This document shows positions 39,727-63,806 of a DNA stretch of 64,000 bases, piece after piece. Location of the stretch: IMG/VR virus record IMGVR_UViG_3300001357_000001, positions 64,001 to 128,000 of that record; one strand, written 5' to 3'. The stretch's first letter is position 1, and each line of letters starts with the position of its first letter. The translations under genes were made by a program, and so were the position numbers. A model generated the notes under the pieces. It saw only the letters and a list, made by a program, of their open reading frames with translations, had not been told where the DNA came from and searched no databases. The stretch comes from a virus (lineage: Duplodnaviria > Heunggongvirae > Uroviricota > Caudoviricetes).

Positions 39727-41471
39727 TTATTTTTCTCTTAATGTTTCATATATTTTCCTTTCCATTTCAATTCTAATTAAAGTACGATTCATATGGTCTT
39801 CATGAGTAGTAATTGAAGGTTCAACATGAGCGACTCCTTTAATCATTTCAACAGCATTTTTTATTACTTCGAAGTCATCAATTCGATAATCACCATCAAG
39901 TGTTACTGTAAATCCTTTTACCCTGTTTGTCATAATTAATCTAATTTAAATTCAGTAATTACTTTTTTTTCTTTTGGTGTCACAATATTGCCTTTTATTA
40001 TTAGATAAGAATTTTCACCCCAATAATTAGTATCATTATTAGAAGGAATTTCATCAAGGAAATAAACATCATCACCATAATCACCATCAGCAAGTTCTTT
40101 TAAAAATTTTTCTTTATCAATTGGTCTTACTGTTGTGTCACCATCACTATTATGAATTAAATAATAAATTTCTTCACTCATTTTTTTATATTTTAATTAG
40201 TATTTTATTTTATTTTGAGGGCGTGACGGGACTCGAACCCGCAACAACAATGTTTTAGAGACCTTGCGTTCTACCAAGTGAACTTCACGCCCGTTTTACT
40301 CCCTTCACCAGAGGTTGTTTCCAACAGAAGGGAGGTCTTTGTTTCCATTTGTCTCAGTCAGCGAATTCTCTCTCTTTCAACTTAGTCCGTTAATTCGGCT
40401 CGAAATTCGCAGGAATAGCGGAACATTTGCTCGTCCCGACATGTTTTGTTAAAGAACGTTACTTTGCCACCAAATCATCATTGGTCTTATATGTTGACGA
40501 TAAAATAATATTTTAGAATATGTTATTAAAAATTCAGGAAATCCTTTAGGTATACCCTTACAATTATTAACATATTCTTCATAAATATCATTAATATTTT
40601 TTTCATTCATCATCAATTCCAAATATATGTTTCCTAATTATTCTGTAATTATTAAAACTTAAACACATTGCTTTAAACATACCACTATCCTTTGCTACCT
40701 GATAAATATATTTTTCACCTTTTTTTATCGTTTTCTGTAAATCTTTGAGATTAATACGCCATTCCTTTCTTTCTTCAACACTAGTATTATCACAAATATA
40801 AACATAACCATCACAAATTCTATCAAATTGAGAAACAGGATATGTTCGTTTCAATAATTCAAAATCTTTCATCGAATATTTAATTCTTTTTCAAGTTTAA
40901 GTACTTGTTCCAATAATTCATCTTGTTTATCAATCCATATTAGTTGAGTATTTCTTTTAAATATCGCATTCCATTGTCTATTAGGATATTTTATATTACT
41001 TGCACGTTCTAATCTATCAATAAGAGAATAAAATTCATTATTTTCATATATTAATGTGTCGAGTTTATTTATTTGCATTTTAATATAAAGCAAATCTTTG
41101 TTTTCAACACCAACTAATAATTCGTCTCTAATGTCAATTAATTCTTTCATTTAGTTCATGTAAAAAATTTTTTCGTCAAATCTAAATTTAGGATTAAATG
41201 CTGTAATACAATCATTTTCATGAAGGTCATGGTCGAGAACCAGCAATACCAATTCATCAAGTTTATCACCTAATTCCCATTGGTCATTACCTCTTGCAAT
41301 AATATAACCATCATTTACATCGATTTTACTAAAAACAAAAGGCTTGTTGTCTTCATCAATTTCTCTATTAATTGTGCCATGAAAACATCGGTCAAAACCT
41401 TTATTGCCTTTACCTGCTTTCGCCATAAAAATTTCTGTAAGTCCTATTTTATTATTTTTCTTTTTTTCCAT
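39727..41471 (-). CDS. Small hypothetical genes (39727-39933, 39936-40181, 40603-40872, 40869-41150, 41151-41471)
   Basis: ATG ORFs flanking the suppressor tRNA. Confidence 0.55.
40218..40292 (-). tRNA. Amber suppressor tRNA (anticodon CTA)
   Basis: GGGCGTG/CACGCCC acceptor; CAAGGT-CT CTA AA-ACATTG; GCGGG-TTCGAGT-CCCGT. Confidence 0.75.
40297..40445 (-). ncRNA. Candidate structured RNA upstream of suppressor tRNA
   Basis: GCGAATT/GAATTCGC, TGTC/GACA, CTCCCTTC..GTTG-GAAA-CAAC..GAAGGGAG; follows boxA at 40447. Confidence 0.45.
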
Positions 41472-42672: not shown

Positions 42673-42677
42673 ATTAA

Positions 42678-43037
42678 TTAAATTATATCAATAACAGCAC
42701 CTAATTCTTCAAGTTCGTCTTTAATTTCTTCGGCATTAATTAATGTTGTTCCATTAATTAATTGACACGGAGCACTATCAATAATATCTTTTGCTTCTTT
42801 AAGACCAAGACCTAATAATTCTTTTATTCTCTTTAAAACAACTAACTTATTAAAACCTACATTACTTAATTGAACATTATAAATTTTATTCTCATCAGAA
42901 ACACCTATTCCAAAAGGAAATTTATAGATATTTGAGTTATAACCATATTTGTCCCAAAGGACAATATTTAAATTATCGAGTTCTTCTGAAGTTAATCTAG
43001 ATATACTACGTGCTATTTCATTTATATTTCTTTCCAT
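42678..43037 (-). CDS. rplL: Ribosomal protein L7/L12-like
   Basis: NKLVVLKRIKELLGLGLKEAKDIIDSAP...AEEIKDELEELGAVIDI. Confidence 0.8.
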   Translation of the reverse strand: MERNINEIARSISRLTSEELDNLNIVLWDKYGYNSNIYKFPFGIGVSDENKIYNVQLSNVGFNKLVVLKRIKELLGLGLKEAKDIIDSAPCQLINGTTLINAEEIKDELEELGAVIDII

Positions 43038-45387: not shown

Positions 45388-45463
45388 AACACCCGAAGGG
45401 ATTCGAACCCCCGACCCCCAAGTTCGTAGCTTGGTGCTCTAAATCCAACTGAGCTACGGGTGC
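45388..45463 (-). tRNA. tRNA-Arg(ACG)
   Basis: GCACCCG/CGGGTGT; CCAAG-CT ACG AA-CTTGG. Confidence 0.93.
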
Positions 45464-46731: not shown

Positions 46732-46812
46732 AAGTGGTGGTGGGATTCGAACCCACATTTTCAGTTCCAATTACACGATATCGGTTTAGAAGACCGATGT
46801 GACTACACCACC
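46732..46812 (-). tRNA. Non-canonical tRNA-Arg(TCT): no D arm in normal position, D-loop-like segment after anticodon arm
   Basis: GGTGGTG-TAGTCAC-ATCGGT CT TCT AA ACCGAT-ATCGTGTAATTGGAACTGAAAAT-GTGGG TTCGAAT CCCAC-CACCACT. Confidence 0.7.
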
Positions 46813-46824
46813 ATGTTGTTGAGT

Positions 46825-47220
46825 CTATTGACTCAACATTTCTTTAACAATTGTACTAGCTGTTTTTTCATCTATTTGAGAAGCAACTGGTAATGTTTTA
46901 ATTTTACCCATTACTTTTCCCATATCTTTCATGCCTGAAAATTTATTAACATTAATAATTTCAGTAATGATATTTTTTATTTGGTTTTCATCAAGCATTT
47001 GAGGTAAATATTTTTCAAGTATTTTAACTTCATCATTATTACCTTGTTCTTTTGCATTTTCAGACATTTTACGAAGAACTTTAATTGACTGTTCATCAGT
47101 TAATTCTTTACCAATTCTTGAAAATTCCCCTGAAACAACTCTTAATAAGCTAAGTTCTTCAGTATTTTTACTTTTCATGGCATTTACCATGTCATTTTTA
47201 ATTTGTTCTTGTAATGTCAT
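46825..47220 (-). CDS. yqeY: GatB/YqeY domain protein
   Basis: MTLQEQIKNDMVNAMKSKN...EVKILEKYLPQML...MKDMGKVMG. Confidence 0.88.
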   Translation of the reverse strand: MTLQEQIKNDMVNAMKSKNTEELSLLRVVSGEFSRIGKELTDEQSIKVLRKMSENAKEQGNNDEVKILEKYLPQMLDENQIKNIITEIINVNKFSGMKDMGKVMGKIKTLPVASQIDEKTASTIVKEMLSQ

Positions 47221-47292
47221 AAGTATTATTTTTGATTGTTAATATTAATCTCGCCATTTACTCGTCATTTTGGCGAGATTGAGACGAAGATG

Positions 47293-47867
47293 TTATTTTA
47301 ATAAATCTTTTAATTGTTCTCGAACATGTGCTTTATAATTTTCAATTATTCTTATCTTTCCTCTTGCTGCTGGATGATGAATGTAATAATGTTTTATTTG
47401 TTGCTTTTTAAGCTCTCTCTCGACCTTTCTTCCCATAGCAACAACAATACCATTAAATGATTTAATGTCTTTAATATCATCCTCAAAAACGTTTTTAAAA
47501 GTTAATTTATTCCAATCTAATCCTAATGCATCAGTTGCTTTAGATAAATGTGCTGCTGCAAGTCTTCTATCCTTCCAAGTCCAACCTTTTTCAATTGCTG
47601 TTGGACTTCTTTCTTCACCAACAAATAATATGTTTTGCATAATATTTATTTTTTATATAAAACATTTTCTTTAACAATAGAAAATTTTTCTTCAGGAATA
47701 CTATCCTCTAATTTTCTAATTTGGTCTTCAATCTGTCTTTTCTTCTTGGCATCAGGACATTCACATTCATAATATAGCAAATATTCTTCATAACGACCAT
47801 CAATTTCTTTTCCACAAAATAAACAAATATTATATTCCCAAGATGAAATTATTCTTTGCTTTTCCAT
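47293..47867 (-). CDS. Hypothetical genes (47293-47640 weakly UDG-like; 47646-47867 CxxC)
   Basis: HHPAARG motif in the first. Confidence 0.5.
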
Positions 47868-47889
47868 ATTTAAATTTGTTTTATGTTTG

Positions 47890-47961
47890 CGCTCTGAGAG
47901 GGATTTGAACCCCCGACCAATAGATTAACAGTCTACTGCTCTACCACTGAGCTACCAGAGC
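47890..47961 (-). tRNA. tRNA-Asn(GTT)
   Basis: GCTCTGG/TCAGAGC; GTAGA-CT GTT AA-TCTAT. Confidence 0.93.
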
Positions 47962-48243
47962 ATTATTCAGTATTTTCGTTAATATCATCATTTACATATC
48001 CAATAACAATACCTATTACACCAATTAATAGTGATGTTGCTAATAGTTTTAAATTAAAAAATTCAATGGGTGCAAAACCCCATATTCCAGCAATAATTGA
48101 ATAAATAATACCGATAAAAAACATTGTAAATGCAATTTTTTTAACATTATCTTTTGTAAAATAATTAATGAAATTTTCAATTGTTTTAATATTTAATTTT
48201 AATTACCAAAGTTAATCAAATTATATTAAAAAACAAATAAAAG

Positions 48244-48285
48244 TTGACCCCACGAGACTCGAACTCGTAATCTCTTCGTTATGAA
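48244..48285 (-). pseudogene. 3' half only of a tRNA(CAT)
   Basis: TTCATAA-CGAAG-AGATT-ACGAG TTCGAGT CTCGT-GGGGTCA; 5' half replaced by end of HNH ORF. Confidence 0.7.
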
Positions 48286-48830
48286 TTTAATTTTTCATAA
48301 TATTTAACCCATTTCCTAATTGTATTATCTGAAACTCCATATTTTTTTCCAACAGAAACATAATTTGTTTCATTAATTTCTTTTAATAATAGTTCATAAT
48401 CAGGACGAACTACTTTTCTCTGCGATATTGAATTACATTTTTTACACCTATTATAACCATAATTAATTTCAATGCCACAATCAATGCATTTTGGTTTATT
48501 TATAGTTCGAATTGAAATAACTTTTTCATTAATGTTCTCTAACATTTTATCTAAATCGTTTATATTTAAATTGGGATGATGAGTTTCTCTATGGCAATTA
48601 GAACATAGCAAATTACATTTAGATACTTCTTCAATTAATTTAGACATTTTAGTATTTGCTAATTTCCTTACATCTAATTTAAATTCTTTTTCATTTGGGT
48701 CAATATGATGGAAATCAAATGCTGCGATATTTTTTGAATATCCACATTTTTCACATTTACCACCTTTTAATTTAATTAATTCTAATTTTCTTTTTAAACC
48801 TCTTAATTTTTGATATTCATATGTATTCAT
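48279..48830 (-). CDS. HNH endonuclease with zinc ribbon and HTH tail
   Basis: CEKCG...FDFHHIDP...CNLLCSNCHRETH. Confidence 0.88.
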   Translation of the reverse strand: MNTYEYQKLRGLKRKLELIKLKGGKCEKCGYSKNIAAFDFHHIDPNEKEFKLDVRKLANTKMSKLIEEVSKCNLLCSNCHRETHHPNLNINDLDKMLENINEKVISIRTINKPKCIDCGIEINYGYNRCKKCNSISQRKVVRPDYELLLKEINETNYVSVGKKYGVSDNTIRKWVKYYEKLNS

Positions 48831-48891
48831 AATAATGTTTTAATAATAAATACACGGAAATTATGAAAAGTATCATAAAAATAATCGTTAC

Positions 48892-48967
48892 TGGTAGTGA
48901 AGGTGGGATTCGAACCCACAACCTTGACGATATAAGCGTCCTGCGCTGACCGTTGCGCCACATCACT
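48892..48967 (-). tRNA. tRNA-Ile(TAT)
   Basis: AGTGATG/CTTCACT-A-CCA; GGACG-CT TAT AT-CGTCA. Confidence 0.88.
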
Positions 48968-49039
48968 ATATATTCTCTTTTAACCATTAGATAATTATTA
49001 GCCAAACGTTTATGAGAATTTAACACCAAATGTAATTAA

Positions 49040-49387
49040 TTATCTTCCTTCATATACCCACATAACAGCATTACAATATGCGTGTACAGCACCTTCAGTC
49101 ATTCCTGTTTCATGATTATGTTGCAATTGAATAGGATGATTTAAAAAATCAGGTGGAAATAAATCCCAATCAATTTTTTTTATTAAAATTTCTATTGGTG
49201 GAAGTTCATCTAATTTACAACCACAATAAAAACATTTATTATCTTGTTCTTCAATATATTGTTCTCTAACTAATTTTTTTTCGAAGCCTTGTAATTTTGT
49301 ATAATCAACAGGTAAATTATATTTCATATTAATAACTTTTATTTGTTCTATATCTTTCTCTTCTTTTATGTCTTCCATTACCAGCAT
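49040..49387 (-). CDS. Endonuclease VII-like HNH protein
   Basis: QDNKCFYCG...LQHNHETGMTEGAVHAYCN. Confidence 0.7.
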   Translation of the reverse strand: MLVMEDIKEEKDIEQIKVINMKYNLPVDYTKLQGFEKKLVREQYIEEQDNKCFYCGCKLDELPPIEILIKKIDWDLFPPDFLNHPIQLQHNHETGMTEGAVHAYCNAVMWVYEGR

Positions 49388-50012
49388 TGAGGGATTTATA
49401 TGTTGGAGTTAATGAATGACAATTTGGACATAGTAATTCTAAATTAGTTAAATTATTATTTTCAGAATTACCGTCTTTATGTTCTAATTCTATTGGTACT
49501 TTTCCAGTAATCGGATGTCTTTCATTCCAACCACATTTCATACATTTATTACCATGTCTTTCAATTAAATATTTTTTATATGTTTCTGAAGGATAATTAT
49601 TATAACCATTTTCTATGTTTGATTTTCGAATATTCCAATCGTATTTTACTTTACATGTTATTGAACAATATTTGATTTGACGATACGATAATTCATTATT
49701 ACACCAAATACAATATTTTTTATTACGTTTTCTTTTAACATGAATTTTATTATTTATTGTTGCAGCACATGAATTTGAACAATATTTTCTATTTTCAGAT
49801 ATTAATGAAGTAAATAATTCCCCACAATTTAAACAAGATTTTTCAATATAATAAGCATCTTTATTTTGTTTATAACCTAATTTATTTAATTTCTCTTTAA
49901 TTGCTTTTGGTGTTCTATCGATATTTTTTGATATTTCATTATACGTCATTCCGTTTTCACATAATGTTATTATTTTTTTTACGTCATAATCAGACCATCT
50001 TTTTCTTTTCAT
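49329..50012 (-). CDS. HNH endonuclease
   Basis: CMKCG...ELEHKDGNSENNNLTNLELLCPNCHS. Confidence 0.92.
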   Translation of the reverse strand: MKRKRWSDYDVKKIITLCENGMTYNEISKNIDRTPKAIKEKLNKLGYKQNKDAYYIEKSCLNCGELFTSLISENRKYCSNSCAATINNKIHVKRKRNKKYCIWCNNELSYRQIKYCSITCKVKYDWNIRKSNIENGYNNYPSETYKKYLIERHGNKCMKCGWNERHPITGKVPIELEHKDGNSENNNLTNLELLCPNCHSLTPTYKSLNAGNGRHKRRERYRTNKSY

Positions 50013-50074
50013 AATATTTATTTTATTATAAATACTATGAAAAAATAAAAAGACTAAAATCTATTTCGAAATAG

Positions 50075-50157
50075 AGCCTCCTGTCAGATTCGAACTGACG
50101 AGTTCTTTCGAAACTGGGTTACAAATCCAGCGCAATCGACCACTATGCGAAGGAGGC
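50075..50157 (-). tRNA. tRNA-Thr(TGT), long variable arm
   Basis: GCCTCCT/AGGAGGC; CTGGA-TT TGT AA-CCCAG. Confidence 0.88.
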
Positions 50158-50213
50158 ATGGAGAGGGACAGGTTATTTATACCTTTATATAGGGACTCCC
50201 TCAGACCCTTTTG

Positions 50214-50286
50214 AGCAGAAGACGGGATTCGAACCCGCAACTTTCAGATTGGAAATCTGACGCTCTGCCAATTGAGTTACTTCTGC
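50214..50286 (-). tRNA. tRNA-Gly(TCC)
   Basis: GCAGAAG/CTTCTGC; TCAGA-TT TCC AA-TCTGA. Confidence 0.93.
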
Positions 50287-50375
50287 ATTATCTCGACTTT
50301 TTACTGAATGCACTCATTCACCTGCAAGTTACAGTAGGTCTTACATTCGAGTGACCTTTAGGCGGTTTTTTTATG

Positions 50376-50450
50376 TGAGGATTCTCCGAGTTGAACGGAA
50401 GCCTACGGTTTTTCAGACCGTTGTACAATAACCACCTATACGAAATCCTC
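50376..50450 (-). tRNA. tRNA-Phe(GAA)
   Basis: GAGGATT/AATCCTC; ACGGT-CT GAA AA-ACCGT. Confidence 0.85.
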
Positions 50451-50556
50451 ATAATATTTTCACACCTTAGATTGCCTAAGTCTAAGTATTTCCCTCACTG
50501 AAGGATGCTGTGTATTTCTGGTTAAGACAAACACTTGTGTGACCAGATTTTAATTG

Positions 50557-50629
50557 TGGAATAGGAGGGATTTGAACCCCCAACCATCGGTACTTCACAC
50601 CGACACTCTACCAATTGAGTTACTATTCC
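50557..50629 (-). tRNA. tRNA-Phe(GAA), second copy (G32)
   Basis: GGAATAG/CTATTCC; TCGGT-GT GAA GT-ACCGA. Confidence 0.85.
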
Positions 50630-50699
50630 ATAAGAGGGTGAGGTCGGTCACGTATGTATGGTTGCGACCCATATCTTGCGACTCCTATTACACCCTTTG

Positions 50700-50773
50700 C
50701 GCACCCGAAGGGACTCGAACCCTTATATTCCTGATTAACAGTCAGACGCTCTAACCAATTCAGCCACAGATGC
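50700..50773 (-). tRNA. tRNA-Asn(GTT), second copy
   Basis: GCATCTG/CGGGTGC; TCTGA-CT GTT AA-TCAGG. Confidence 0.9.
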
Positions 50774-50779
50774 ATAATA

Positions 50780-50930
50780 TCCCTGCATGAGTCTTTATAC
50801 TCAATCTCTTCGTGTTATTTCGAACACAGTAATATCTCTCAAAATGTTTTGCGTTCCGTGTTGCCAACCACGGGTACAATCTAGCATTTCCCTGAATATT
50901 AAAGAGTAGCTGCTTAAAGCAAACAGGGAC
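50780..50930 (-). ncRNA. Candidate multi-hairpin RNA between tRNAs
   Basis: TCCCTG/CAGGGA closing stem; CCGTG-GTT-GGCA-AC-ACGG; GTGTT/AACAC; TGAGT/ACTCA. Confidence 0.45.
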
Positions 50931-51020
50931 TCGCACACTTTACATCAATTTATTGCTGCAACAATTAATCGTTTATAGTATTGTGTGAGAAACAATTTGA
51001 ATTGCAGTTCAAATCATTTG

Positions 51021-51103
51021 CGGAGAGTAAAGGAATCGAACCCTCGCCCCGAAGGACGGCACGGATTTCAAGTCCGCTTATCCACCATTGGATGCTACTC
51101 TCC
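51021..51103 (-). tRNA. tRNA-Ser(TGA)
   Basis: GGAGAGT/ACTCTCC; GCGGA-CT TGA AA-TCCGT. Confidence 0.93.
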
Positions 51104-51191
51104 AGTATCACTATGGAGAGGGTTTCACTCTCAATTTCATATGTAGTGACATGTATATCATATGAACCCGAACCATTTTTTATCGGCATTG

Positions 51192-51272
51192 TGGTTGGGA
51201 GGGTGGGATTTGAACCCACGTGTGACCAGACTACACTTTCTACTGCTTATCAGGCAGAGGTGATACATCCCA
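51192..51272 (-). tRNA. Non-canonical tRNA-Ile(GAT) with a D-arm-like hairpin after the anticodon arm
   Basis: TGGGATG-TATCACC-TCTGC CT GAT AA GCAGT-AGAAA-GTGT AGTCTGGTC ACAC-GTGGG TTCAAAT CCCAC-CCTCCCA-A-CCA. Confidence 0.7.
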
Positions 51273-51565: not shown

Positions 51566-51697
51566 TTATATTCTAATATCATTAAAACCAGTACCCGAAT
51601 TCATATCTCTGCCAAAATTTGAACAGAATATACTATTCCCATTGCGACTAATAATTGTCGTTGACGAAATAATACTATTTATGTTTCTTGTTTCCAT
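51566..51697 (-). CDS. Leader peptide (43 aa) of the large tRNA operon
   Basis: METRNINSIISSTTIISRNGNSIFCSNFGRDMNSGTGFNDIRI; between promoter and terminator; contains antiterminator TTCGGGT. Confidence 0.8.
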   Translation of the reverse strand: METRNINSIISSTTIISRNGNSIFCSNFGRDMNSGTGFNDIRI

Positions 51698-59590: not shown

Positions 59591-59663
59591 TGGGGATGGT
59601 AGGACTCGAACCCCCGACTCTCGCATTAAAGGTGCGATACTCTACCAACTGAGTTACGAACGC
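59591..59663 (-). pseudogene. Chimeric tRNA: Lys-like 5' part joined at the T loop to the 3' end of another tRNA
   Basis: 5' GCGTTCG does not pair with 3' CATCCCC; T stem GGGGG/CCTAC mispairs; loop CCTTTAA. Confidence 0.6.
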
Positions 59664-59760: not shown

Positions 59761-59846
59761 TGGTCACCAAACGGGACTCGAACCCGTGCGCAGGGATTAA
59801 GAATAGCAAATGCGTTCCCTTGCTCTGCCAACTGAGCTACTGATGC
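59761..59846 (-). tRNA. tRNA-Lys(CTT) with 12-nt insertion in anticodon loop
   Basis: AGGGA-[ACGCATTTGCTA]-TT CTT AA-TCCCT; normal D and T arms; encoded CCA. Confidence 0.7.
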
Positions 59847-62714: not shown

Positions 62715-63806
62715 TTAAATAATTGGATTATATCCGTCAGCAAACGGTTTACTATAGACTGGTCTAATCATTTTCCAAATAATTTCATCATAAGGTCTTT
62801 TATCATATAATTTAAATAGTATTGCACGATAATCTGATTCTTTTGCTTGTTCAGCAAATTCAGCACGACTAACAATATTATTAACATGATAAATCCTTAC
62901 AAACTCTAATAATGACAGTCTTTCGATTTCATTATATTTATTTTGTAATTTAGTTATTGTTCGTCTTAACCAATCATAAAATTCATCAGGTACTCTATCG
63001 AATAATTCATCAAAATCATAATTATTTAACAAGTGTTCCCAAACAGTTAGGTTTGAAACATTTGTTAAAATACCATGTAATCTTACATATTCAGTAAATT
63101 TAACTTTAACTCTAAACCCACTAAAGAATCTAATTACAAATCCTTCACGATTTTCTTCTTCAAGTTCTTTGAGTTCATTTAATTTATTAATATTATTAAC
63201 TTTATGTTTTTTTACAACAGTAAAAAAATCAGAATATTTACCAACTAAATCTTTATAAAATAATTCAAAACCAGTACTGGTTTCAATTCTAGTTAATAAA
63301 ATTAAATCTCTTAAATCACCATAATCAACAACAATTCTATTTTCAGGATAAATTATTTCAAACAAATACGTACACTTTTTATTTAATTTAAAATAAACAT
63401 TGTTTTTAGACTCAAGCATTTTTTTTGCAACAATTGATTGTTCAGAAATAAATGAACCTCTCGATGCAACAATCCATATTTTATATAAATCATAATAAAA
63501 TAATATAATCAATGAACCATCCATTTTTTCAAAAATATCAAAATCTTGCGATAAATCAATATCAGATGGGTCGTGTTCTTCAAAATTTAAAAATTTCTGA
63601 AATGGACGTGCTAAAATATTTCCATCGGCATCAACAACCATACCACGACAAGCCATAGTATATTCATCCCAAAATCTTTTTGATTGTGCTTTAGGACTAT
63701 AATTAAGAATCCATATGTTATATTCTGGATGTTTATTTGCAACAATTAAATTATTATCAATATAATGATTTAAAGTATTCCAGTCGACTTTATTTAATAA
63801 TTTCAT
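62715..63806 (-). CDS. RNA ligase, T4 Rnl1 family
   Basis: CRG, RPFQKF.N, EKMDGS (motif I), ASRGSF, FEII, EGFVI, RVKVK. Confidence 0.9.
   Translation of the reverse strand: MKLLNKVDWNTLNHYIDNNLIVANKHPEYNIWILNYSPKAQSKRFWDEYTMACRGMVVDADGNILARPFQKFLNFEEHDPSDIDLSQDFDIFEKMDGSLIILFYYDLYKIWIVASRGSFISEQSIVAKKMLESKNNVYFKLNKKCTYLFEIIYPENRIVVDYGDLRDLILLTRIETSTGFELFYKDLVGKYSDFFTVVKKHKVNNINKLNELKELEEENREGFVIRFFSGFRVKVKFTEYVRLHGILTNVSNLTVWEHLLNNYDFDELFDRVPDEFYDWLRRTITKLQNKYNEIERLSLLEFVRIYHVNNIVSRAEFAEQAKESDYRAILFKLYDKRPYDEIIWKMIRPVYSKPFADGYNPII

Follow-up and report, generated by a model that had tools for sequence, protein, structure and literature searches.

Background

To our knowledge, the cloverleaf is treated as universal for transfer RNAs (tRNAs) outside animal mitochondria. 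Here we describe two tRNA-like genes, for Arg(UCU) and Ile(GAU), found in a stretch of 64,000 nucleotides (nt) that covers positions 64,001 to 128,000 of the Caudoviricetes record IMGVR_UViG_3300001357_000001 from IMG/VR; this whole stretch is called the window below. In these genes the D stem does not form a hairpin of its own. Its two strands flank the anticodon arm and the D loop comes after it, and the two genes probably encode working elongator tRNAs with a re-threaded core.

Several described kinds of tRNA come close to this layout. The circularly permuted tRNA genes of the red alga Cyanidioschyzon merolae carry the 3' half before the 5' half, and a circular intermediate restores the cloverleaf. 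The genes described here, which we call rewired, also differ from the cloverleaf in the order of their segments, but here the 5' and 3' acceptor strands lie at opposite ends of the gene, as usual, and form a stem together. Like the D-arm-lacking mitochondrial tRNAs of nematodes, mites and other animals, which are functional (PMC7609411, PMC9976931), they present no D arm to gene finders in the usual place. The mitochondrial type, however, is shorter and has truly lost the D stem and loop, whereas the rewired tRNAs keep a covarying D stem, an invariant GG and a Levitt-like pair; the setting also differs, being organelles in one case and bacterial viruses in the other. Finally, class II tRNAs with their long variable arm (Ser, Leu and bacterial Tyr), tRNA-Sec and allo-tRNAs (PMC7609411), all accepted as tRNAs of non-standard shape, share with the rewired genes the extra nucleotides between the anticodon and T arms. 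In these known tRNAs the extra nucleotides form a self-contained hairpin next to a normal D arm, while in the rewired tRNAs they are a D-stem strand and the D loop, pairing with the 5' part of the molecule. Full-text searches, with subscription-only and older papers outside their scope, returned no description of the rewired layout. A 2020 review of non-canonical tRNA structures, which covers tRNA-Sec, allo-tRNA, tRNA-Pyl and mitochondrial tRNAs, contains none of the strings 'phage', 'permut' and 'rearrang'.

Structure of the rewired tRNAs

Alignments of 60 distinct Arg-type and 72 distinct Ile-type genes were made, together with two covariance models, R1 (Arg) and R2 (Ile). Both window genes were in the training sets, and score 93.5 bits (Arg, R1) and 86.9 bits (Ile, R2) with their own models; the independent cross-scores are 41.9 bits for R2 on the Arg gene and 32.8 bits for R1 on the Ile gene, compared with 32 bits or less for canonical tRNAs. 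The coordinates, the anticodons UCU and GAU and the linkers TAGTCAC (Arg) and TATCACC (Ile) given in a preliminary description of this DNA were borne out, and both genes are on the minus strand.

The acceptor stem, anticodon arm and T arm are canonical in both window genes. With canonical class I tRNA-Arg and tRNA-Ile (RF00005), the rewired tRNAs share the 7-bp acceptor stem and discriminator, a T arm with a GUUCRA loop, a 5-bp anticodon stem with a 7-nt loop (U33 and a purine at 37), a length of 77-81 nt, and the elements U8, A14, R15:Y48, G18, G19, A20 (Arg) and A73 (Ile). Unlike canonical tRNAs, neither window gene has a D-arm hairpin between positions 9 and 26. In tRNA numbering the chain runs 8-9, 22-25, 26, 27-43, a linker resembling 44-45, 10-21, 48 and the T arm. 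Read from the aligned genes, the strand leading into the D loop and the D loop itself (10-21) are behind the anticodon arm, and the 22-25 partner is kept in front as part of the 7-nt linker. Because the segment 10-21 lies behind and the equivalent of 22-25 in front, the D stem encloses the anticodon arm. The secondary structure is thus a three-way junction with one long bulged arm instead of the canonical four-way cloverleaf, and the Arg type has, unlike canonical tRNAs, an extra 3-bp helix (helix a) that closes the D loop. The parts of both genes are listed in Table 1.

The enclosing helix (helix b) is formed by the 3 nt just 5' of the anticodon arm and the 3 nt just 5' of a U-A-R..GG segment, and is CAC/GUG in both window genes. 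Its middle pair covaries in both types. In the Ile type (pair 12-38) it is CG in 43 genes, UA in 25, AU in 2 and GC in 2, and is unpaired in 0 of 72; in the Arg type (pair 13-44) it is GC in 34, UA in 12, CG in 8 and AU in 6, with no unpaired case. This covariation was not built in, since the search patterns left the 5' strand unconstrained. Helix a of the Arg type (AGY with RCU) also varies on both sides, with GC in 29 and AU in 15 genes at pair 10-55, and CG in 36, UG in 14 and UA in 10 at pair 11-54. No covarying partner for a counterpart of helix a was found in the Ile-type alignment, and on this ground the Ile type seems to do without it. The Arg-type acceptor stem is 99% paired and has two-sided changes in all 7 pairs. 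Over the whole structure, 94.8% of the alignment cells are paired in the Arg type and 97.6% in the Ile type, with covariation scores of 0.853 and 0.681, against 0.229 and 0.193 for shuffled and 0.11-0.16 and 0.06-0.12 for slid controls. A blind mutual-information scan of all column pairs placed the pairs of the model at the top; helix b leads all pairs in the Ile type and is among the highest in the Arg type. In 20 further members that had no part in building the models, and that came to light only with the covariance models or in genome collections, 52 of 60 helix-b cells were paired, against 11-25 of 60 when the partner strand was shifted.

The loops are conserved as well. U8, A14, G18, G19 and the T-loop residues are invariant in the family alignments, and the columns of the Arg D-loop-like segment are invariant or nearly so in the 60 Arg-type genes. 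In the Ile type the purine that follows U-A and the pyrimidine that directly precedes the T stem vary together, as a Levitt-like R15:Y48 pair (pair 42-53: AU in 48 genes, GC in 22, other in 2); in the window gene, G 51231 (R15 equivalent) pairs with C 51220 (Y48 equivalent). In the Arg-type alignment column 63 is a conserved U and column 48 is A, and A15:Y48 covariation is not measurable because the search pattern fixed A15. The invariance of GAAA in the Ile-type alignment is, for the same kind of reason, no evidence, since this motif was fixed in the search pattern. Decaying tRNA pseudogenes or chance tRNA-like fragments might be suspected here, as ARAGORN rejects both window genes and the Ile gene only just passes the Rfam threshold. 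However, hundreds of homologues exist in which every helix has compensatory changes and loop residues are invariant; because of this covariation pseudogenes are excluded, and we give this explanation practically no probability.

The preliminary description had already proposed one rearrangement common to both isotypes, with a covariance-model search as its check. The layout recurs, with strong covariation, in at least 80 (Arg-type) and at least 115 (Ile-type) viral contigs, far more than chance would produce, and homologues with covarying stems were found in phage genomes. The rearrangement had, however, been drawn as an intact D hairpin (GTGT, loop, ACAC) moved to the position of the variable arm, with the 7-nt linker unpaired. 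This hairpin can be drawn in the window Ile gene, where RNAfold draws the same, but the Arg gene has none. In the Ile-type alignment its pair 38-52 is unpaired in 70 of 72 genes and 0 of the 4 GUGU/ACAC pairs has a compensatory or two-sided change, whereas covariation between the linker and that same GNG strand is perfect. The moved hairpin was therefore rejected, and we regard it as hardly credible. Of the functional rearranged tRNAs proposed earlier, what stands are conserved, structured, tRNA-like elements that are, judging from their sequences, most likely functional; the transfer of the D arm as an intact hairpin does not.

Another explanation of the segment order is a scrambled precursor, in which the 10-21 segment is cut out and re-ligated before 22-25 by a phage or host RNA ligase, giving an ordinary cloverleaf. 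An Rnl1-type RNA ligase gene is present in the window (62715-63806), and an RNA ligase gene adjoins the homologue in phage Boevelstad. However, 3 of 5 complete carrier phages have no Rnl1, Rnl2-type or RtcB ligase, and the covarying helix a of the Arg type would be partnerless in a re-ordered cloverleaf. Three cuts and joins would be required, no conserved cleavage motif was seen at the junctions, and the genomic order already folds into a complete covarying structure. Such a precursor is very improbable. The evidence, namely the covarying helix a and the carriers that mostly lack a ligase, says instead that the rewired RNA would work in its genomic order.

In the L-shaped yeast tRNA-Phe, positions 9 and 22 are neighbours through the 8-14-21 layer, 45 and 10 through the 45-10-25 triple, and 21 and 48 beside the 15-48 pair. 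The new junctions of the rewired chain (9 to 22, 45 to 10 and 21 to 48) would join these neighbours. The layers of the Ile-type stack are as in canonical tRNAs: a five-layer anticodon stem (four Watson-Crick pairs and a U-U), 1 nt for position 26, three pairs and a U-U. Since the three new junctions join neighbours of the L-shape and the Ile-type layer count is canonical, an L-shaped molecule is plausible by analogy with known tertiary contacts. The D stem, which is still formed, would stack on the anticodon arm it encloses, and the D loop would be in reach of the T loop.

Table 1. Parts of the rewired tRNA-Arg(UCU) and tRNA-Ile(GAU) genes, in coordinates of the window
Feature	Coordinates	Strand	Description
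Rewired tRNA-Arg(UCU)	46812..46732	-	81 nt including discriminator U (46732); CCA not encoded
Arg acceptor stem, 5' strand	46806..46812	-	Partner 46733-46739; G1-U72 wobble
Arg helix a, 5' strand AGU	46802..46804	-	Partner ACU 46763-46765; closes the D-loop-like segment
Arg helix b, 5' strand CAC	46799..46801	-	Equivalent to D-stem 23-25; partner GUG 46774-46776 across the whole anticodon arm
Arg anticodon arm	46781..46797	-	5 bp and loop CUUCUAA; anticodon UCU 46788-46790
Arg helix b, 3' strand GUG	46774..46776	-	Equivalent to D-stem positions 10-12
Arg D-loop-like segment UAAUUGGA	46766..46773	-	Equivalents of A14, A15, G18, G19, A20
Arg helix a, 3' strand ACU	46763..46765	-	Partner AGU 46802..46804
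Arg linker GAAAAU	46757..46762	-	Final U is the likely Y48 partner of A15
Arg T arm	46740..46756	-	GUGGG, loop UUCGAAU, CCCAC
Rewired tRNA-Ile(GAU)	51272..51195	-	78 nt to discriminator A (51195); encoded CCA 51194-51192
Ile acceptor stem, 3' strand	51196..51202	-	Partner 51266-51272; one U-C mismatch, pair 6-67
Ile helix b, 5' strand CAC	51260..51262	-	Partner GUG 51234-51236 across the anticodon arm
Ile anticodon arm	51242..51258	-	Loop CUGAUAA; anticodon GAU 51249-51251; first stem pair U-U
Ile linker AGAAA	51237..51241	-	Between anticodon arm and helix b 3' strand; place of positions 44-45
Ile helix b, 3' strand GUG	51234..51236	-	Partner CAC 51260..51262
Ile D-loop-like region	51220..51233	-	U, then AGUCUGGUCA, then CAC
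Ile T arm	51203..51219	-	GUGGG, loop UUCAAAU, CCCAC

Identity bases and function

The family retains identity bases that agree with the anticodons. All members with an Arg anticodon have A directly after the GG, also those on the Ile-type scaffold and those found with the models only, and all members with an Ile or CAU anticodon have U there; the window genes have GGA (Arg) and GGU (Ile). A20 is the main determinant for the bacterial arginyl-tRNA synthetase, ArgRS (PMC9976931). Of the 72 Ile-type genes, 71 have A as discriminator, in agreement with A73, listed as the discriminator determinant shared by the valine, isoleucine and methionine identities (PMC9976931). The CCA end is encoded by 32 of 54 genes of the Arg type, by 11 of 67 of the Ile type and by the Ile gene of the window. 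Position 35 is the sole difference between the anticodons UCU (Arg) and UAU (Ile), and likewise between CCU and CAU. One scaffold could therefore switch between Arg and Ile by changes of base 35 and base 20, and if these changes suffice, two isotypes sharing one design would be explained.

In the proposed mechanism, an RNA is cut from the transcript of the tRNA operon and would read, from its 5' end, the acceptor 5' strand, U8 (A9), the D-stem 22-25 strand, position 26, the anticodon arm, a short linker, the D-stem 10-13 strand, the D loop (A14, R15, G18, G19), Y48, the T arm and the acceptor 3' strand. Host ArgRS and IleRS (the isoleucyl enzyme) would charge the rewired RNAs. The ribosome would then use tRNA-Arg(UCU) to read AGA and tRNA-Ile(GAU) to read AUU and AUC, which would supply the commonest Arg and Ile codons of the phage. 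In the window, AGA makes up 64.6% of the Arg codons, and ATT and ATC together 70.7% of the Ile codons. Canonical tRNA-Arg(ACG) (45388-45463) and tRNA-Ile(UAU) (48895-48967) genes are present, and neither ARAGORN nor the Rfam tRNA model found a canonical UCU or GAU tRNA within the 64-kb window. The recurrence of AGA and ATT codons in a leader peptide of the operon, put forward earlier as a further link, is weak: the putative peptide, an open reading frame of 43 codons (51697..51566), has 5 ATT and 3 AGA codons against about 2.3 and about 1.0 expected from the codon use of this AT-rich phage (Poisson P about 0.08 each).

Some observations weigh against working elongator tRNAs. The window Arg gene has U73 as discriminator, while tRNA-Arg of E. 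coli has A or G73. The acceptor stem of the window Ile gene contains a U-C mismatch; in the Ile-type alignment the acceptor pair 6-72 is unpaired in 14 of 72 members. In LR745206.1, a 635-kb uncultured phage, a rewired Arg(UCU) gene is directly followed by a canonical Arg(UCU) gene (L005:1495-1652), so the rewired form is not always needed merely for anticodon supply.

The last arrangement would also suit tRNA mimics that do not, or not mainly, serve decoding, but act as decoys or inhibitors of tRNA-directed nucleases or tRNA-binding defence proteins, or as substrates of another aminoacyl-tRNA-dependent reaction. The almost wholly viral occurrence of the family and its restriction to two amino acids point the same way, and PMC11555353 describes phage tRNAs that counter tRNA-targeting defences. 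However, for binding a nuclease, synthetase identity bases that agree with the anticodon (A20 for Arg, A73 for Ile) would not be required, the encoded CCA, full T loop and Levitt-like pair would have been kept without need, and one phage has a rewired gene as its only tRNA. We consider mimics of this kind unlikely, and elongator tRNAs working in translation remain the probable reading of both genes. It is possible, as a tentative idea that we would not favour, that the rewired core is itself an anti-defence architecture; phage tRNAs for Arg and Ile would then evade recognition or cutting by host proteins in the region of the D arm, would still be accepted by the host synthetases and would be used as encoded.

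Distribution among phages

Each element was compared by blastn with 50,697 phage records. Relatives of the Arg element, 74-84% identical to it and aligned over more than 90% of it, are found in the Pseudomonas phages Boevelstad, HHBS10_2, IME180 and vB_PaeM_Ty (82-84% in Pseudomonas phages), the Listeria phage LPML1 and the Salmonella phage SSBI34. A shorter match is present in a 635-kb uncultured phage (81% of the query) and a partial one in a Maribacter phage (69% of the query). Relatives of the Ile element (82-89% identity) are found in the crAss-like phages Kehishuvirus tikkala and cr130_1 and in the Streptomyces phages LilMartin, MulchMansion, Angela and Coruscant; the loci in Kehishuvirus and the Streptomyces phages, with 86-89% identity to the window gene, are unannotated. 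Cultured phages of Pseudomonas, Listeria, Salmonella, Streptomyces, Maribacter and Bacteroides (crAss-like) are among the carriers. In all 11 of the 11 GenBank phage records examined, from unrelated hosts, the locus is either unannotated or lies under a spurious protein call ('hypothetical protein'), and the homologues are often within a tRNA array. The complete 50-kb genome of HHBS10_2 (PQ287653.1) carries an unannotated rewired tRNA-Arg(UCU) at 42674-42753, which is its sole match to the tRNA model.

The counts of at least 80 and at least 115 contigs come from two motif scans of IMG/VR, one for the Arg type and one for the Ile type. Ordinary tRNAs are unable to match these motifs because the D-loop motif is required within a few bases of the T loop. 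Among the matches listed, the Arg type has only Arg anticodons (UCU, ACG and UCG), and the Ile type has UAU, GAU and CAU as well as two Arg anticodons (CCU and UCU) on the same scaffold. No other isotype was found among matches above about 43 bits in about 1.5 Mb of phage loci, where all anticodons are Arg, Ile or CAU.

The same motifs gave 18 (Arg) and 23 (Ile) matches in 185,579 prokaryotic species genomes, one genome per species, and the models confirm only 8 and 4 of these loci. The contigs that carry confirmed loci are all metagenome-assembled and 1.6-79 kb long, most of them 30 kb or less, and no confirmed locus is in an isolate genome; where motif matches fall on large chromosomal contigs, their scores are those of ordinary tRNAs. 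The family is therefore essentially viral, as confirmed loci are few among the species genomes and absent from isolates. A contig of a metagenome-assembled genome, JBBAEW010000077.1 (L216:1650-1926), carries three tandem rewired tRNA-Arg genes with the anticodons UCG, CCU and UCU.

Detection by gene finders

The rewired genes had been expected to be invisible to standard tRNA finders, and this holds largely for ARAGORN. It found neither the Arg(UCU) nor the Ile(GAU) gene of the window. Of the 132 members of the family it made a call of any kind on 10, namely 9 of the 60 genes of the Arg type and 1 of the 72 of the Ile type, and the anticodon it gave was often incorrect. The Rfam tRNA model RF00005, on the other hand, catches both window genes: its gathering score is 29 bits, and the Arg gene scores 46.9 and the Ile gene 30.4 bits. 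Relatives in Kehishuvirus (24.5 bits) and cr130_1 (27.4 bits), however, fall below this score. To fit either window gene, the Rfam alignment drops 10-11 positions of the D arm and takes up an insertion of 19-21 nt that follows the anticodon arm and precedes the T arm.

The tRNA region of the window

The window has a G+C content of about 27%, and nearly all genes are on the minus strand. A megablast search with 20 kb of the window against the 50,697 phage records gave zero matches; the phage is therefore without a close sequenced relative among them. The tRNA region is long, with 15 tRNAs called by ARAGORN and 20 matches to RF00005. Models R1 and R2, run with filters off, found no rewired tRNA in the window beyond the Arg and Ile genes. 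A promoter scan of the window was uninformative (45 sites against 41.6 expected).

Beside the rewired tRNA-Arg there is a gene for a YqeY-like protein with a GatB/YqeY domain (46825-47220, minus strand; Pfam E = 2e-22), which ends 12 nt upstream of the tRNA. A 9-bp hairpin (46817-46838) spans its stop codon, just 5' of the tRNA. Next to the rewired tRNA-Ile, the spacers of the tightly packed tRNA genes at 50157-51195 have a G+C content of about 37%, well above the rest of the genome, and contain hairpins; they have no match to Rfam families. A class II tRNA-Ser(UGA)-like gene with a long variable arm and a short T stem lies at 51021-51103 (minus strand). It was overlooked by ARAGORN and scores 33.6 bits with the Rfam tRNA model and 40.8 bits with the tRNA-Sec model, which is under the threshold of the latter (47). 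Two more matches to the tRNA model on the minus strand were overlooked by ARAGORN, one at 59591-59663 (38.1 bits), whose 5' and 3' ends do not pair as an acceptor stem, and one at 59763-59846 (35.2 bits), with a greatly enlarged anticodon loop around CUU. A tRNA with the anticodon CUA (amber suppressor type; 40217-40292, minus strand) is labelled tRNA-Pyl by ARAGORN.

Protein genes are also present in this region. Two open reading frames (48279-48830 and 49329-50012, minus strand) sit among the tRNA genes, and the second has weak matches to HNH endonucleases and zinc fingers, which suggests that homing-type genes were inserted in the tRNA region. The RNA ligase gene (62715-63806, minus strand) is of the T4 Rnl1 type (PF09511, E = 1.4e-18) and belongs to the same region as the tRNA clusters. 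An RNA ligase of this type beside tRNA clusters is usually read as a tRNA repair enzyme.

Conclusions

If the rewired genes are working tRNAs, the cloverleaf would no longer hold for a large and conserved family of phage tRNAs, in which the helices and contacts of the L-shape are kept and the threading of the chain is re-ordered, and the tRNA fold would tolerate topological rewiring. The family would then offer a natural experiment on what is truly required by synthetases, EF-Tu, RNase P, modification enzymes and the ribosome. Phage tRNA inventories and codon-supply analyses would be incomplete, and the rewired scaffold could serve as an orthogonal tRNA chassis. Cultured phage-host pairs exist for several carriers, which makes the question directly testable.

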